A stretch of 64,000 bases of DNA, taken from assembly GCA_963833095.1 (NCBI GenBank), contig CAWHWQ010000004.1, positions 1 through 64,000 on the forward strand, given 5' to 3'. Source of the DNA: Vulcanimicrobiota bacterium (lineage in GTDB: Bacteria > Vulcanimicrobiota > Vulcanimicrobiia > Vulcanimicrobiales > Vulcanimicrobiaceae). The notes beneath the pieces were generated by a model. That model saw only the letters and a program-made list of their open reading frames with translations, had not been told where the DNA came from and made no database searches. Made by a program: the position numbers and the translations under genes. The number at the start of each line of letters is the position of its first letter. Within the stretch, counting starts at the first letter, position 1. Positions 1,423-7,914 of the stretch are shown here, piece after piece.

Positions 1423-1755
1423 ATGGCCCAGGCTACCAACGTTTCTACCATATCCCCATCCCGCTTTCACAATCTTGCCGACCCGGCGCTTGCCGATGCG
1501 CTCGGTCATGCCGATGCCGTGCTGAAGGGCGCGGAGGCCGAATGCAAGCTGCTCAAGGACGAATTTAAGCGCCGGGGCCTCGTTGAGGTCGCGGGCGGCC
1601 AATTCACATTCACAGCCACCGAACAGATCGCTGGTCGGCTCGATACCAAGGCCGTGAAGGAATATCTCGGCGAATCTTATCACCGCTTCGAAAATACGGT
1701 CATCTCGACCGTCATTCGCATCAAGTCGGTGCAGCGGATCACGAGCGCCGCATAG
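1423..1755 (+). CDS. Hypothetical protein (110 aa), mobile-element/phage-like accessory
   Basis: Clean ORF with GAGGAG RBS upstream, divergent from the RHH-like gene. Confidence 0.65.
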   Translation: MAQATNVSTISPSRFHNLADPALADALGHADAVLKGAEAECKLLKDEFKRRGLVEVAGGQFTFTATEQIAGRLDTKAVKEYLGESYHRFENTVISTVIRIKSVQRITSAA

Positions 1756-1851
1756 CGATCCCGGAGTGTCCTTCATAGCTCGCGGTCCCACACTGCGAGC
1801 ACCCTTATTTTTCAAAATTCGACGGAGACAGCAATGTCGATCCCATCTGTG

Positions 1852-2715
1852 TCAATCGGCGTTCAAATTTGACCCCGTATCGGCGTCCAATTTTGACCCC
1901 TTTGAGCGGCGGGTTTTGACAGTAGCGCTCGCCTCGTCGGAGCTGGCCGGGGTTGCGGAGACGTGGCGAGCGCGGGTTGCGTGATCGTCGTCGCGGCTTT
2001 TGAAGCGCCAACTGTCGTTGCCGGTTTCCACGATATCGCAATGGTGAGTCAGGCGGTCGAGCAGCGCGGTGGTCATCTTGGCATCACCGAACACGCTGGG
2101 CCATTCACCGAAGGCAAGATTGGTGGTGACGACGATGGATGTGCGCTCGTAAAGCCGACTGACGAGATGGAACAGAAGCTGGCCGCCGGACTGAGCGAAC
2201 GGTAGGTAACCGAGTTCGTCGAGGACGATGAAGTCCATTCGGGTCAAATGCTCGGCGATCCGCCCCTGCCGTCCGTTGCGCGTCTCGATCTCCAGACGGT
2301 TGACGAGGTCGACCACGTTGTAAAAGCGGCCGCGCGCGCCGGACCTGATGCAGCTTCTGGCGATTGCGATGGCCATATGTGTTTTGCCGGTGCCGGTACC
2401 TCCGACCAGGACGGCGTTACGTTGCTGGGCGATGAAGCCGCCGCCGGCGAGATCATTGACCAGCGTCTGGTTGATGGGTGTGCCTTCGAACTGGAAGTCC
2501 TCAAGATCCTTGGCCAGCGGCAGTTTGGCGATGGTGAGCTGGTACCTGATCGAGCGGGCTTGCTTCTCATTGATCTCGGCGTTGAGCAGATCGCCAACAA
2601 TGCGTTGAGGTTCGTGCTGGCGTTTGACAGCGGTCGCCATGATCTCGTCGAAGGCGGCCTTCATGCCGTAGAGCTTGAGCTCGCCCATGAGGTCGAACAG
2701 TTGAGTACGTTCCAT
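1852..2715 (-). CDS. istB: IS21 helper AAA+ ATPase IstB
   Basis: Walker A GGTGTGKT, Walker [15 protein letters not shown] and LDRL.HH motifs. Confidence 0.95.
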
Positions 2716-4214
2716 CAGATGGTTCTCCTGAGGTTGTCGTAACGGGCACAGTCAGCGATCGGCGCGTGACGCAATGTCAGCGAAGCCGGTGTGGCGATGT
2801 TGGCCGGCGGCGCAGGATCACGCTGGCGGGCCAGGATGTTGAGCACGACATCGGCGGAATGAACGCCGTGAGCGATCGCCTCGGCGCAGGCTGCTTCGAC
2901 GGCCGGCAAGCCGTCGGTCAGAACCGCGTTGAGGATGTCGACCATCTGCCGATTGCCATCGTCGGCACCGACGAGCTTGCGCCGTACACGTTCGATCGCG
3001 GCCGGCAGCACCCAGTCCTTGAAGGGAGCGCCGTTGCGCAGGGCACCGGGTTTGCGAGCCAGCACCGGCACGTAATGCCAGGGATCGTAGACGGTATCGC
3101 CGCGGCTGAACGAGCGAGCATGCTCAGCAACGATGCGTCCGTCCTGGCGGATCACAATGCGGTCGGCGTAGGCATGGACTTCGACAGGCCGTCCGACGGC
3201 ACTCGCCGCGACCGAGTATCTATTGTTGTCGAAGCGCACCAAGCAGGTCTTCGAGACTGATGCCGGCACTGCGTGGAATCCGTCGAACCGGCCGGCATAG
3301 GGAACGAGCTTCGGTCGCTCGGCTTCGAACACCTCCCAGAGCGTCTGTTCGGTCAGTTCCGGATGGGGGTGAGCCTTGGCGTAAGCGATGCACTTATCCA
3401 GCAGCCATGCGTTCAGCTCATTCAGGGTTTTGAACCGCAGCCGTGGCGTGAAGAATCGTTCGCGAACCAGCCCGACCTGGTTCTCGACCTGACCCTTCTC
3501 CCAGCCCGACGCCGGCGTGCAGGCAACCGGATCGACCAGGTAGTGACTGCACATCTGCATGAAGCGGCGATTGTAGAGACGTCCTTTGCCGACGAAGATC
3601 GTCTCCACGGCGGTCTTCATGTTGTCGTAGATGCCGCGCACGCAGGTGCCCTTGAACAGAGCGAATGCCCGGTCGTGGGCATCGAACACCATCTCCTGTG
3701 TCTCGCGCGGATAGCACCGCACGAACAGCATCCGGCTGTGGCAGAGTCGGACATGGGCGGCCTTCACCATCACCGTTACGCCATTGAGCAGAACGACTTC
3801 ATGGCTCCAGTCGAACTGATAGGCTTCTCCCGGCGCAAAGCTCAGCGGGACGTAGGCTGCAGCCGTGGATTCCCCACGCTCCTTGCTCCACCGTCTGGCG
3901 TAACGCCGTACGGCGTCGTAACCGCCGTCATAGCCCCGCGCACGCAGCTCTTCGAAGATCCGGATCAATGTCAGTTGCTCGCGAGCGGACTTGGCCGCGT
4001 TCCCTGCCAGCAATCCGTCGAGTTCTGCTGCCCATCGTCCCAGCTTCGGCCGCGGTTGGACAACACGCTCGTACTCGAATGAGGTCTCGCCCGACCTCAG
4101 CACCTTCCGGACCGTGTTCCGCGACACCTTCAGGTCACGGGCGATCTCCTTGATCGTCTTGCCCTTGATGAAGTGCTCGCGCCGTATCCGGGCAATCGTC
4201 TCCACGATCAGCAT
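2715..4214 (-). CDS. istA: IS21 DDE transposase IstA
   Basis: N-terminal HTH ([14 protein letters not shown]), [21 protein letters not shown]; overlaps istB by 1 base. Confidence 0.95.
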
Positions 4215-4404
4215 CCCCGACCACCTGCTTCATGACAAAGCAGGCAGCGCAACAGACCAATCTATAGGGGGTCAATTTTGGACGCCGATCCCCCGGCTTA
4301 GGGGGTCAATATTGCAGACGATGACGTAATTGCGGTCGGCGTTCGCGGTACGGAACATCCGCTATCTTCAAGCCTTCCTGCAATCTAACGAATCGGAGGG
4401 GACC

Positions 4405-5433
4405 GTGAAGCAATATGTTGGGTTGGATGTCTCGCAAAAAGAAACCTCAGTATGTGTGGTCGACGAAGTGGGTCAGGTCTTGTTCGAAGGAAGGGCCAAG
4501 TCCGACCCAGGGGCACTCGCGGCATTGCTTCGCAAGCGGGCGCCACAAGCGGAGCGCATCGGATTTGAGACTGGGGCGATGGCGAGTTGGCTATGGCATG
4601 AACTTCGTCGGGTCGATCTCCCGGTGGTTTGCATCGACGCGCGGCACGCCCACGCGGCTTTATCCGTACGCATGAATAAAAGCGATCAGAATGATGCTCG
4701 AGGCCTGGCCGAACTGGTGCGAGTTGGCTGGTATCGGGAAGTCAAGGTCAAGAGCGAGGAAAGTCAGAAGATCCGCGCGATACTCGTCGCGCGATCCCGG
4801 CTCGTGTCCATGCGCCGAGACATCGAGAACCAAGTCCGGAGTTTGATCAAAGAATACGGCTTGCTGTTCCCGCGCGCGATCGGCCAGCAGTTCCGCAACC
4901 AGGTCAGCGAGCTATTGGGCGACGATCATCCACTCCTCAGCGTGATATCGCCGCTCCTGTTGATCCATGAGCATATCTGTCAGCAGCAGAACAAGTTCGA
5001 CGACGAAGTTCGCCAGTTGGCGAAGGCGGATGAGACGACGCGCCGCCTGATGACGGTTCCCGGTGTCGGCGTGGTGACCGCCTTGACCTTCCGCCATACA
5101 ATCGATGACCCGTCGCGCTTCCGATCGGCATCGAGCGTCGGCGCCTATCTTGGCCTCACACCTCGGCGCAACCAATCTGGCGAAACTGACATCAATGGCA
5201 AGATATCACGATGGGGCGACCGGCTTCTCCGAACTTACCTGTTTGAGGCCGCGACCGTCCTGCTTTATCGGACAAAGAAGTGGTCTTCTCTTAAGGCCTG
5301 GGGCATGAAGCTCGCCAAGCGGATCGGCATGAGGAAGGCGAAGGTCGCCATCGCCCGAAAGATCGCCGTGATTCTTCACTGCATCTGGGTCGACGGCACA
5401 TCATTCGACTGGGGTCTGGCGAAGCCGGCCTGA
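4405..5433 (+). CDS. IS110-family DEDD recombinase/transposase
   Basis: GTG start after GGAGGG. YVGLDVS, IGFETG and [11 protein letters not shown] give the DEDD set; VPGVG and LGLTP...QSG mark the Tnp20-type domain. Confidence 0.95.
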
Positions 5434-5760
5434 CGATTTTGTAAGTTCCTGGTCCGGTCCGCCGGACTGGCGATGTCCCGCTGGGACGGTGTTGTGGCGA
5501 CCTCGTTCATTCGGCTGGTGGCGGCTTGACCGTACTCCGCTGCAAACGTTGAGGCGCCCGACCCGGACATCATCATGAGGCGCTGCGCGACCTCGGAAAG
5601 GACCATGACCCCAGCGAAGACATCAACCGGTCTCACGATGCCGGCCGGCACACCATGATCAGCCGCGCTCGCGCCGTCTCCGCAACCCCGACCAGCTCCG
5701 ACGGCGCGAGCGCTACCGCTTGCCGTCGGAGAGTTCAAAAAGGTAAGCTTGACAACAAAT
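5434..5760 (+). ncRNA. Candidate seekRNA/bridge RNA region of the IS1111-type element
   Basis: About 330-nt non-coding tract with hairpins (GTCCC-GCT-GGGAC 5475-5487; CTCCGACGGC/GCCGTCGGAG 5696-5731) and a target match TCATTCGGC at 5507-5515. Confidence 0.7.
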
Positions 5761-5957
5761 CCGCAATTAAAGGGCCGAATGACAGGCTGTTCTAAAATCA
5801 GTGCTTTTCGGAACACTCCCGACGGCGGTAGGACGGGAATCGGCTCTCCGGCCGTCGCAAATAGTGGCCGCTAATCCTTTGCCGATCGCGAATTTGCAGT
5901 GTGAAGCCGGCAACGCCATTAGTCGGCAGGCCCGCGCTAACAGCCACCGTCAAACCG

Positions 5958-6410
5958 CTACCGCACTACCAACACCGGCACGCTTCCGTCCGCTAGGACC
6001 TCCGATGTTTGACTCCCCAAGAATAGCTTCCTGAGGCCGCGACGCCCATGAGAGGCCATGACGATCAAGTCGCAGCCTCTGGACTTTGCTGTTTCGATAA
6101 TCGCAGTGGCTGGGTGCGCATTCGGAACATGCAAGAGTTCTGCAGATATCCCGATCTGCTCCGCCATAGCTCGAACTTCATCGAGCACTTTGCCCGCACG
6201 TTCCTTGCGGGCTGCGTCAAAGCTATCAACCTCTTCCTGCGAGGGAATCCATCCCGAGGCGTGTCCGCCTCCATAGTCGACCGGCAGCGGTTCCGTTACG
6301 GTGATGACTGTCACTTTAGCGTTCAAGGCCTTTGCTAAAGCAATCCCATGCTCAACGCCTTTTCTCGCGACATCCGATCCATCCGTGCTCAAGAGAATAT
6401 TGGCGTACAT
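5958..6410 (-). CDS. Universal stress protein (UspA family)
   Basis: MYANILLSTDGS N-terminus and DLIVMASHGRRG...LGSQT...VPVLVVR C-terminus. Confidence 0.93.
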   Translation of the reverse strand: MYANILLSTDGSDVARKGVEHGIALAKALNAKVTVITVTEPLPVDYGGGHASGWIPSQEEVDSFDAARKERAGKVLDEVRAMAEQIGISAELLHVPNAHPATAIIETAKSRGCDLIVMASHGRRGLRKLFLGSQTSEVLADGSVPVLVVR

Positions 6411-7007
6411 TCGGGGCTCCCTTGCTCATCGGAATTTGAAATGCAATATCCCCGCCGCTATGCAATTGCGCGCGGCGTTGGACAGCGCCCTTCTTCTTGC
6501 GCAGCCCGTTGAGTAATTAAGCCCAATTGCTACGACCCGCTGGCTCGGTAAAGTCCTGCGAGCCCGTCCATCGTCTGCAGTTGAAGGCCGAAACGTCATC
6601 ATCGCCGCAAAGCATTCGTGAATATTAAAGGCCTAGAACCGGAAGGCCACCGTTAATCTACTCGGATCAATGCGTTGCGGCGATGACGACCGAGAATTTC
6701 GATAAAAAGTCCCAACTAATATTGAATCTGGATGAAAAACCGCCCGGGCTTTACACCGGACGGTTCTTTTGCGTCTCCCGGCTTTTGACCGGCTCTGAAG
6801 CTGCTGTGTCAAGTGACGGACACACGAAAGGTTCCGTCAGATTGGCTAGAGCAGGACTTAAAATTGACCTTTCACCAAGTTGAAAAAGGCATCAGGTCCT
6901 TCTGCCAGCATTACTCAACATATGCCGGTGACGCGAGGTTCATTGGAGCGCCTCGTTGCCCGGCTTGGTGCGGCGCTTTGCTTTTGCCTACCTTTTGATG
7001 ACGCTGA

Positions 7008-7196
7008 TCAATGAGCTATCGACGGAACGATTGCCGGCGAGTCGTCGTCATCTAATTCGCGAAGTCTGCTTAAAGGATTTTCAATTTGAGCCGGTAGTTT
7101 TGTTTGGTCCCGGGCTAGAATTTCGCGCAGGCGCTCGCCAATCTCCGTGCACATCGCGCGACTGTGGGCGAGATCGATGTTGATTTGGTCTTGCAT
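7008..7196 (-). CDS. Small hypothetical protein (62 aa)
   Basis: MQDQINIDLAHSRAMCTEIGERLR...SPAIVPS; resembles small Rhizobiales proteins from recollection only. Confidence 0.45.
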   Translation of the reverse strand: MQDQINIDLAHSRAMCTEIGERLREILARDQTKLPAQIENPLSRLRELDDDDSPAIVPSIAH

Positions 7197-7251
7197 GGTG
7201 GAAATCCATTCTGTTACTAGACCAAGGCCGCCACCTGCAAATTGTTTCTGC

Positions 7252-7914
7252 TCAGTCTGCACGAAGATTGTTCAATCGTCTTGGAACAAATCCTGCGCGC
7301 ATCTTTCGCCCACAGGGGCAACGGATAGCTGCGGGCGCTAGGGTAATTCGGCGACCATCGCCGGCCTTGACAAATTCGGCAAGGCGCCAGCCGGTGCGGT
7401 CGCTTGGCCCCAGCATGATTTTGCTGCGCATTTCATCAGCGATGCCAAGACGCTCAAGGAGCTTCTCAAAATAGATGCCGCTTGTGCCTTCGGTGGAGCG
7501 CATGACCGATTTCGCTGACAGAATGGCGCGCTTAAAGCCATCAACCGTGCTGATGTCGGGCTTAGGCGCGCCCTCACGCACCGCGAGACCGAGCCCGGAA
7601 CGGAAAATATCAGTGCGGCTGTCGGCCGCAATTTTGCCCTGCTTGGTCAAATCGTCTATCACCGCACGAGTTACAATGGCGATATCGAACGCCGAGCCGC
7701 CTTCGATCTGACGCTTTATGATATTGGCCGGGTCGTAACTGAACGACAGCTTGCGGCCGGTTGAGCGCTCAAACTGAGGGCCGAGCTCGCTCAACACTTC
7801 CATAGCCGCGTGCGTGCTCAGGATTTTGATTTCATCCGCGTTCGCGGTGATACCTTGAGACAGCAGTATTGTGAGCGCCGTTTGCGCAACAAAGGCTAGT
7901 GGACGAAATCTCAT
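7252..7914 (-). pseudogene. ModA-like periplasmic substrate-binding protein, C-terminally truncated
   Basis: Signal peptide, then GLGLAVREGAPKPDIST and GTSGIYF motifs. The family pattern stops after IMLGPS (about 7400). Confidence 0.65.

Follow-up and report, generated by a model that had tools for sequence, protein, structure and literature searches.

We identified an insertion sequence (IS) of the IS110/IS1111 family lodged precisely within the terminal inverted repeat of an IS21-family element in a Vulcanimicrobiota bacterium (contig CAWHWQ010000004.1, positions 1 to 64,000; this whole 64,000-nucleotide stretch is referred to below as the window). The inserted element is an autonomous IS110/IS1111-family insertion sequence and, judged by eye, a close relative of the ISFinder entry ISBdi12. 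Its anatomy, its exact junctions, the recurrent target of its relatives and the co-variation of guide segments with that target are observed features, and they are best explained, very probably correctly, by an ISBdi12-like IS1111 element that is guided by its own downstream RNA into IS21-type ends.

In the proposed mechanism, an RNA from the 340-nucleotide (nt) region downstream of the element's own gene would direct the recombinase. Within an internal loop closed by a conserved stem, a 5' guide (5505-5515) would pair with the top strand of GCCGAATGA, and a 3' guide (5541-5548) with the bottom strand of TGCAG. The two half-sites are predicted to adjoin only in the outer terminal inverted repeat common to a group of IS21-family elements and their derivatives, and the element would integrate 11 base pairs (bp) inside this repeat, in one orientation, with no base gained or lost. 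Judging from the published mechanism, the RNA is presumably made and bound, the element would move as a circle with a joined-end promoter, and excision would restore the IS21 end.

An IS21 terminal repeat interrupted by an IS1111 element

The host element has the following parts.

1850..1876, minus strand: right terminal inverted repeat of IS21 (TGTCAATCGGCGTTCAAATTTGACCCC), uninterrupted, with the istB stop codon inside it at 1852-1854
1852..2715, minus strand: istB, IS21 helper ATPase, 287 amino acids (PF01695, E 9e-76; NF038214, 266.2 bits, cut-off 200)
2715..4214, minus strand: istA, IS21-family transposase, 499 amino acids (NF033546, 300.5 bits, cut-off 160; rve and Mu-transposase C domains)
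4215..4317, minus strand: inner part of the IS21 left end, with an internal repeat from 4268 and, at 4302-4317, the 16 terminal-repeat bases nearest the element's interior
5774..5784, minus strand: outer 11 bases of the IS21 left terminal repeat (GCCGAATGACA), severed from the remainder by the insert

As in other members of the IS21 family, istA is followed by istB, here with a 1-base overlap at 2715, and both frames are intact. Terminal inverted repeats that start with TG, together with internal repeats of the same motif, are a defining feature of this family; the termini of the window element start with TG and the same motif recurs inside each end (inner repeats from 4268 and around 1874-1900). 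The left end reads GGGGTCAATATTGCAG (4302-4317), 1,456 bases of foreign DNA and then GCCGAATGACA (5774-5784). When GGGGTCAATATTGCAG and GCCGAATGACA are joined, the product agrees with 1850-1876, read as the reverse complement, in 22 of 27 positions (binomial P about 3e-9 for at least 22 matches at the base composition of the window). When both window strands were searched for 27-mers with at least 20 matches, three hits were obtained, namely the IS21 right end and one inner repeat in each IS21 end.

Uninterrupted relatives of the host were available in Nitrobacter. Six intact IS21 copies at loci L038, L039, L041-L043 and L071 (L numbers denote loci of relatives), whose IstA is 90-92% identical to that of the window, have the left end TGTCATTCGGC[C/A]TGCAA[T/A]ATTGACCC, and the inner part of the window's left end (4215-4317) agrees with the uninterrupted left ends of Nitrobacter IS21 copies. 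These intact ends correspond to the window left end minus 4318-5773, and the boundaries of the insert are therefore exact, with no target duplication and no base loss. An earlier note on this DNA had proposed a precise insertion into the IS21 terminal repeat from the 22/27 match, and the Nitrobacter left ends, which equal the rebuilt end and terminate with GCCGAATGACA as that note expected, bear this out.

We also observed that istB extends across the right terminal repeat, its frame ending at the TGA within TGACA, so that an insertion at the right end, as in Nitrobacter L038-L044, replaces the last few istB codons.

The main parts of the inserted element, apart from its predicted RNA and the hairpin module described below, are as follows.

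4318..5773, plus strand: inserted IS110/IS1111-family element, ISBdi12-like, 1,456 bp, delimited by comparison with the rebuilt IS21 end and with the 63 relatives in which both ends were placed
4327..4335, plus strand: left subterminal inverted repeat TAATTGCGG, set 9 bases in from the left end
4405..5433, plus strand: gene for a DEDD transposase (RNA-guided recombinase), 342 amino acids, GTG start (PF01548, E 3.8e-21; PF02371, E 1.8e-22; NF033542, 252.8 bits, cut-off 140)
5749..5754, plus strand: conserved TTGACA, -35-like, 19 bases from the right end (18 in most relatives)
5761..5769, plus strand: right subterminal inverted repeat CCGCAATTA, set 4 bases in from the right end

NF033542 is the NCBIfam model 'IS110 family RNA-guided transposase'. 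The assignment to the IS1111 type, also made in the earlier note, agrees with the matches to this model, PF01548 and PF02371, that is, with a DEDD domain and an IS110-type C-terminal domain, as well as with the subterminal repeats and the long downstream non-coding region (340 nt at 5434-5773 vs 87 nt upstream of the gene). Further IS1111 features present in the window element are a specific target, a single orientation, no target duplication, and a guide order in which the top-strand match lies 5' of the bottom-strand match. The subterminal repeats are 9 bp long (10 bp in most relatives) with 9 and 4 outer bases, and in one relative, L068, both repeats are altered in compensating fashion (TAATCGCGG and CCGCGATTA). 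Once the ends join in a circle, and only then, a promoter would form from TTGACA, a spacer of 18 nt (17 nt in most relatives) and GACGAT.

Relatives insert into the same site of IS21-type ends

We scanned one genome per species for close protein relatives of the window transposase and obtained 78 loci, mostly in Bradyrhizobium and Nitrobacter, to which four plasmid copies from PLSDB were added. Both ends could be placed in 63 elements, representing 58 unique insertion sites. The right flank GCCGAWTGACA was exact in 48 of the 58 sites and had at most one mismatch in 51, always beside the right end of the element; the earlier note had named unrelated targets as the finding that would speak against it, and the flanks point the other way. 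The DNA beyond this motif differs at every site, which identifies TGACA as the true terminus of the host element. The left flank at most sites reads ..CAAWWTTG(C/A)A(G/A/C). When the 27-base IS21-end consensus was compared with the joined flanks, 34 sites were within 3 mismatches and 44 within 5.

The hosts at these 58 sites fall into several classes.

10 sites: istA or istB adjoining (the window at a left end; nine at a right end, eight of them in one Nitrobacter genome)
6 sites: a 1.9-kb element with a 573-amino-acid rve-type protein and the same 27-bp termini
11 sites: miniature elements of 35-92 bp consisting of two IS21-type ends
9 sites: an ISL3 element directly beside the remaining end piece
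22 sites: left unclassed by the script, many with an IS21-type 27-mer

The proposal that the element targets IS21 ends is supported, with 44 sites within 5 mismatches, and the target is better described as IS21-type ends, as istA or istB lies beside only 10 sites. The same class counts could be taken to mean that there is no real tie to IS21 at all: the guide would simply match a common 15-base word, of which IS21 ends are merely the most frequent carriers. Recognition indeed involves only about 5 plus 9-10 bases, istA or istB is nearby at so few sites, and L005, L055 and L049 combine a fitting right half with an unrelated left flank. However, almost every carrier is an IS21-type end or a derivative of one, and the agreement over 27 bases at 44 sites extends far past the approximately 15 recognised bases. 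In addition, four distant relatives on Mesorhizobium, Bosea, Agrobacterium and Rhizobium plasmids (65-72% DNA identity) are inserted 11 bp inside IS21-type ends with the end variants GCCGATTCACA, GCCGAAACACA (twice) and GCCGATTGACA. Even relatives with as little as 65% DNA identity, from four other bacterial families, thus carry guides that fit the local IS21-type end (GCCGAAACA, GCCGATTCA), which suggests that the association is old and that the guides track the ends. We consider a chance word match very improbable and retain the reading of an element directed to IS21-type ends. A still more distant relative, L086 (55% protein identity), has a different flank.

One departure from a simple join was detected: in L006 and L007, two copies of one site, two additional bases (AC) separate the element's right end from GCCGATTGACA, which may bear on the position of strand exchange. 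We also tried a 2-base core common to donor and target, as in IS621, and rejected it: the left junction has AC and the right junction GC, and a simple join fits all sites except L006/L007.

Guide segments co-vary with their targets

Two segments of the downstream non-coding region correspond to the two halves of the target.

5505..5515, plus strand: T guide GTTCATTCGGC, complementary to the top strand of the right target half GCCGAATGA (5774-5782); co-varies with the right flank
5541..5548, plus strand: B guide TGCAAACG, in which the first 5 bases repeat the 5 at the end of the left target half (4 of 5 fit TGCAG) and the last 3 are ACG, as at the start of the element

The T guide GTTCATTCGGC is the reverse complement of GCCGAATGAAC, and the actual right flank is GCCGAATGACA. 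Among the 58 sites, the T guide fits at 9 or more of 10 bases in 54; at position 6 of the right half, which is A or T, guide and target agree in 56. The B guide fits at all 5 bases in 21 sites and has one mismatch in 25 more (at least 4 of 5 in 46 sites). When guide-target pairings were shuffled, none of 10,000 shuffles reached the observed total for either guide. Among the four distant relatives, every T guide fits its target; one B guide fits at all bases, two have a single mismatch, and that of L115 fits poorly.

There were 20 guide combinations among the 58 sites, and the window copy has one of its own (GCCGAATGAAC with TGCAAA). Several elements have been re-targeted. For example, L018 is flanked by CCCCAC and GCCGATTAACA and its guides are CCCCACA and GCCGATTAAC; L051 (GCTTATTCACA), L068 (GCCGATCCACA) and L013/L049 (GCCGAATAACA) also have guides that match their different targets. 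These variants indicate that guides are tuned to the left-end form of IS21 (GCCGAATGA, as in the window), to the right-end form (GCCGATTGAC) or to the ends of other IS21 lineages.

Since related sequences inflate co-variation counts, kinship was checked on a tree of the 58 transposase genes with the non-coding region left out. On this tree, position 6 of the guide switches between its left-end and right-end states six times, and guides or whole non-coding regions thus seem to have been exchanged or to have re-evolved often. At position 6, the target changes in the same way as the guide in all four independent pairs on supported branches (p 0.125). For C as the last base of the B guide, the target follows in about 4.8 of 5 independent pairs (p 0.06); for G, it follows in 3.7 of 6 pairs, with the opposite change in 0.3 and no difference in 1.9.

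A predicted guide RNA

The guides lie in a conserved, structured part of the non-coding region.

5443..5616, plus strand: conserved structured core of the downstream non-coding region, a predicted seekRNA or bridge RNA (consensus fold of 37 sequences)
5567..5603, plus strand: candidate donor-binding loop, placed tentatively from a reading of the sequence and the consensus fold

The consensus fold of 37 different 5443-5616 sequences contains 52 pairs, and 98.3% of its cells are paired. Compensatory changes were present in 8 of the 52 pairs, compared to 3.1 in shuffles (none of 500 was as high) and 0-3 with slid partners. The guides occupy both sides of an internal loop that is closed below by the stem 5496-5504/5549-5558, which includes two co-varying pairs. 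A second loop could tentatively be a donor loop like that of bridge RNAs. On one side, ACATCATCAT (5567-5576) shows complementarity to the first ten bases of the element in 8 of 10 positions; on the other, AAAGGAC (5597-5603) is identical to the element's final five bases followed by its first two, and a hairpin (5577-5594) lies in between.

Public sequencing runs were also searched, and none had more than a third of the element's sampled words. Contigs of four metatranscriptomes (88% likeness) cover the gene end and the non-coding core of relatives (5303-5688 and 5337-5603), with strand and RNA ends not shown by them.

Several observations weigh against an RNA-guided element directed to IS21-type ends. 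On the target side, 10 of the 58 sites lack the exact right flank, and the left flanks at a few (L005, L049, L053 and L055) are unlike IS21 ends. The B guide of the window copy departs from its target at one base (TGCAA vs TGCAG), the guides of L076 and L079 misfit their right flank, and the independent-pair tests, consistent in direction, are each underpowered (p 0.125, 0.25 and 0.06). As to the RNA, an Rfam scan of 1500-6500 (E up to 1) returned a chance snoRNA match and no bridge-RNA or seekRNA family; the single-sequence fold was no better than that of shuffles (z -0.9); the metatranscriptome contigs come from relatives, may be DNA and were not counted as evidence of expression. The sides of the donor loop are nearly invariant, and in the variants L068 and L115 the guide is altered with no fitting change of the end, i.e., there is no co-variation. 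Finally, no direct repeat (target duplication) was seen by eye around the window IS21 between the flanks ..CCCATCTG and GGCTGTTC..; its absence is possibly due to an old rearrangement, and the target duplications of the Nitrobacter IS21 copies are, also by eye, inconsistent (5 bp at L038, 7-8 bp at two copies of the second subgroup described below, none at others).

A Nitrobacter genome as a natural control

The complete Nitrobacter genome behind L038 contains 10 full copies of the small element, nine scoring 2646-2668 of 2668 bits and one 99% identical. Eight of the 10 abut, in the same arrangement and in different surroundings, the right end of one IS21 subgroup, in which all six full-length copies with a fitting right end, plus two cut-off copies, are occupied. 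The resident guides read GCCGATTGAC and TTGCAA. In a second IS21 subgroup, which is 83% identical, none of the five full-length copies is occupied; its right end, ..GTTCCAAC|GCCGATTGACA, fits the resident guide in the right half and misfits in the left half (CCAAC), and both target halves therefore seem to be needed. The left ends, which could be read for five of the six occupied full-length copies and have the target form of the window (TGCAG|GCCGAATGA or a near variant), are empty. The two ends of one host are thus told apart by one right-half base and one or two left-half bases, and the window element carries the left-end version.

Eight copies in one arrangement would also be expected if the small element spread mainly as a passenger inside an IS21 that transposes as a composite, and not by fresh insertions. 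The situation in the window genome, where both elements are single-copy and nested, and from which neither was traced to any of 300 other genomes of the same family, fits an arrival as a pair. However, the Nitrobacter inserts are approximately 100% alike, whereas their IS21 hosts are only 91-97% alike, implying that the inserts are younger than the hosts and arrived separately, by recent colonisation of older copies. The same type of element is also found in other hosts (rve-only elements, miniature elements and ends beside ISL3), and the insert separates the outer 11 bp with the cleavage site from the inner repeats. Spread as a passenger is thus improbable in our estimate, and guided insertion into existing IS21-type ends is preferred.

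The same separation has a possible consequence for the host. The IS21 transposase needs an intact end, and a promoter from abutted ends drives its expression. The insert places 1.46 kb between the outer 11 bases, which include the terminal TG/CA cleavage site, and the inner transposase-binding repeats. With the end interrupted and the abutted-end promoter lost, movement of IS21 should be blocked, and it is plausible that the insertion immobilises IS21 until it is excised. That IS21 ends serve as a multicopy safe harbour, as the earlier note proposed, fits the data as an interpretation.

Distribution around the window genome

No second copy of either element was found in the window's own genome. 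A search of this genome for a spare cognate target gave one match with 1 mismatch, no more than the reversed-pattern control. Neither element was detected in 300 other genomes of the same family (170 of them at least 90% complete), and no match to either flank (1-1849 and 5785-7300) turned up in 17 same-genus genomes, from which no empty site was recovered. The nearest relatives of the window transposase are in Bradyrhizobium, with 97% protein identity. Given the absence of copies in the family, the unmatched flanks and these nearest relatives, the pair looks recently acquired by horizontal transfer and located in accessory DNA. The pair lies 1.8 kb from the contig start in an assembly that is 81% complete, and its presence in this genome is possibly a binning error; the main finding is unaffected either way.

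A shared hairpin module and other elements at IS21-type ends

A short hairpin occurs in both the insert and its host.

5663..5716, plus strand: 54-bp hairpin module in the tail of the small element, 91% identical to IS21 1922-1975 (minus strand)
1922..1975, minus strand: the module as it occurs in IS21, within the 3' portion of the istB frame and past the conserved IstB domain

The module has a 14-bp stem and a 21-nt loop with CCGCAA, and is in the same sense relative to the gene of each element. The local alignment score of the two copies is 83 compared to at most 26 in shuffles, and the IS21 copy has one compensating stem change. The module is present in both IS21 subgroups of the Nitrobacter genome (L038, L105-L111) and absent from five short variants of the small element (1,334-1,342 bp: L036, L049, L053, L054 and L068), suggesting that it was taken up from the IS21 host. 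Most metatranscriptome matches to 5663-5719 extend into IS21-like sequence on both sides. In L067 (79% protein identity), two right-end-like copies (CTTGAC..CCGCAATT) enclose the hairpin module within the stretch 4526-4950; this duplicated right end may be a trace of the acquisition of the module.

Additional elements were found at IS21-type ends. One is a 1.9-kb element (L029:1545-3423; also L010, L063, L066, L070 and L006) that encodes a 573-amino-acid protein with an rve domain alone and no istB. This protein gave no significant BLASTP match to IstA (E 0.14), scored below the cut-offs of the IS481 and IS21 models, and had no match in a PHROGs search. In 10 of 10 ends, the 27-bp IS21-type termini of this element directly abut its own inner repeat CGTATTGCC..GTTACC. 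Another example involves ISL3-family elements (ends GGCTCTGAC..) located between two IS21-type end pieces (L014:1535-3230, L028:1728-3423, L032 and L037), an arrangement that looks like an insertion of ISL3 into the AT-rich centre of a putative miniature IS21-derived element; the same ISL3 neighbourhood was observed on Agrobacterium and Rhizobium plasmids (L114, L115). Two IS21-type ends and nothing else make up miniature elements of 35-70 bp (L081:3375-3401 plus 11 bases past the insert; L026, L073, L052, L059, L017, L035 and L036). Some are near-perfect palindromes, e.g., TGTCAATCGGCTTGCAAAAATTTGCAA|GCCGATTGACA, and they occur in varied surroundings and are used as targets too. IS21-type ends thus seem to collect several kinds of insertion sequence.

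A more far-reaching reading, possible but rather doubtful, is that the clade is a dedicated hyperparasite of IS21, which has left-end and right-end guides, saturates and locks the fitting copies and took the hairpin from the istB of its host, with the ends as a landing pad shared with ISL3-type and rve-only elements. If this is true, one insertion sequence would act as a natural brake on another. The system offers a way to ask whether one insertion sequence can silence another. In addition, the natural series of re-targeted guides (20 combinations at 58 sites), in which guide pairs separate the left from the right end of one host by one right-half base and one or two left-half bases, provides material for the specificity rules of IS1111-type recombinases. 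The general picture of how IS1111 elements work is unchanged by our finding.

Comparison with known systems

IS4321 and IS5075 reportedly insert in one orientation at a fixed spot inside the terminal repeat of another mobile element, and are said to have subterminal inverted repeats and to cause no target duplication. The window element resembles them in its fixed-position, single-orientation nesting in the terminal inverted repeat of other mobile DNA and differs in the target, which is a Tn3-family end there and an IS21-type end here. The habit of IS1111 elements of nesting in the ends of other mobile DNA, seen before with Tn21-family transposons, is thereby extended to the widespread IS21 family. 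IS621 likewise combines a DEDD recombinase with a non-coding RNA that has two target-matching segments, one per strand, and its bridge RNA is said to have a two-loop architecture; in the window element, the second (donor) loop is only tentatively placed.

The closest catalogued element is ISBdi12, which Siddiquee et al. (2024, PMC11187229) assign to the IS1111 family and for which they give 244 copies and 39 unique insertion events. Its transposase, as given in the supplement of that paper, is approximately 95% the same as the 342-amino-acid protein of the window when compared by eye only, and its C-terminus GQPQPV is common to L005, L010 and L014. Identities to other clusters were read for ISBdi12, standing in for the window protein: in the source data of PMC11187229, ISBdi12 shows 22-29% identity with the IS1111 cluster and 17-22% with the IS110 cluster, compared to 40-48% with an alphaproteobacterial group that has ISMex9, ISMno22 and ISAzs32 among its members; with the transposases of IS4321/IS5075 it shows only 22-23%. 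The target of ISBdi12 is stated neither in the main text of PMC11187229 ('IS21' occurs 0 times) nor in its readable text supplements, the picture supplement and online logos aside. A literature search, with the ISFinder record outside its range, returned no paper describing an IS110/IS1111-family element that targets IS21 ends, nor one giving the target of ISBdi12. These results suggest that the element type itself is already catalogued, and that its IS21-type target and the left-end and right-end guide versions have not been described in the literature searched.

Compared to the family description in the text of PMC11187229, in which IS1111 subterminal repeats are 11-13 bp with 7 and 3 outer bases, those of the window element and its relatives are shorter (9-10 bp), with 9 and 4 outer bases in the window element. 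According to the same text, the non-coding region downstream of the gene gives rise to a seekRNA in IS1111 elements, and in this RNA the segment that matches the top strand of the target lies 5' of the one that matches the bottom strand. The seekRNA systems of ISEc11, ISKpn4 and ISPa11, as far as they are described there, share the DEDD recombinase, the RNA location and the guide order with the window element; they target REP, attC or other sites, whereas the target here is an IS21-type end and the element is known from sequence alone. The natural re-direction of guides between ISEc11 and ISXne4 reported in that text is paralleled by L018, L051 and L068.

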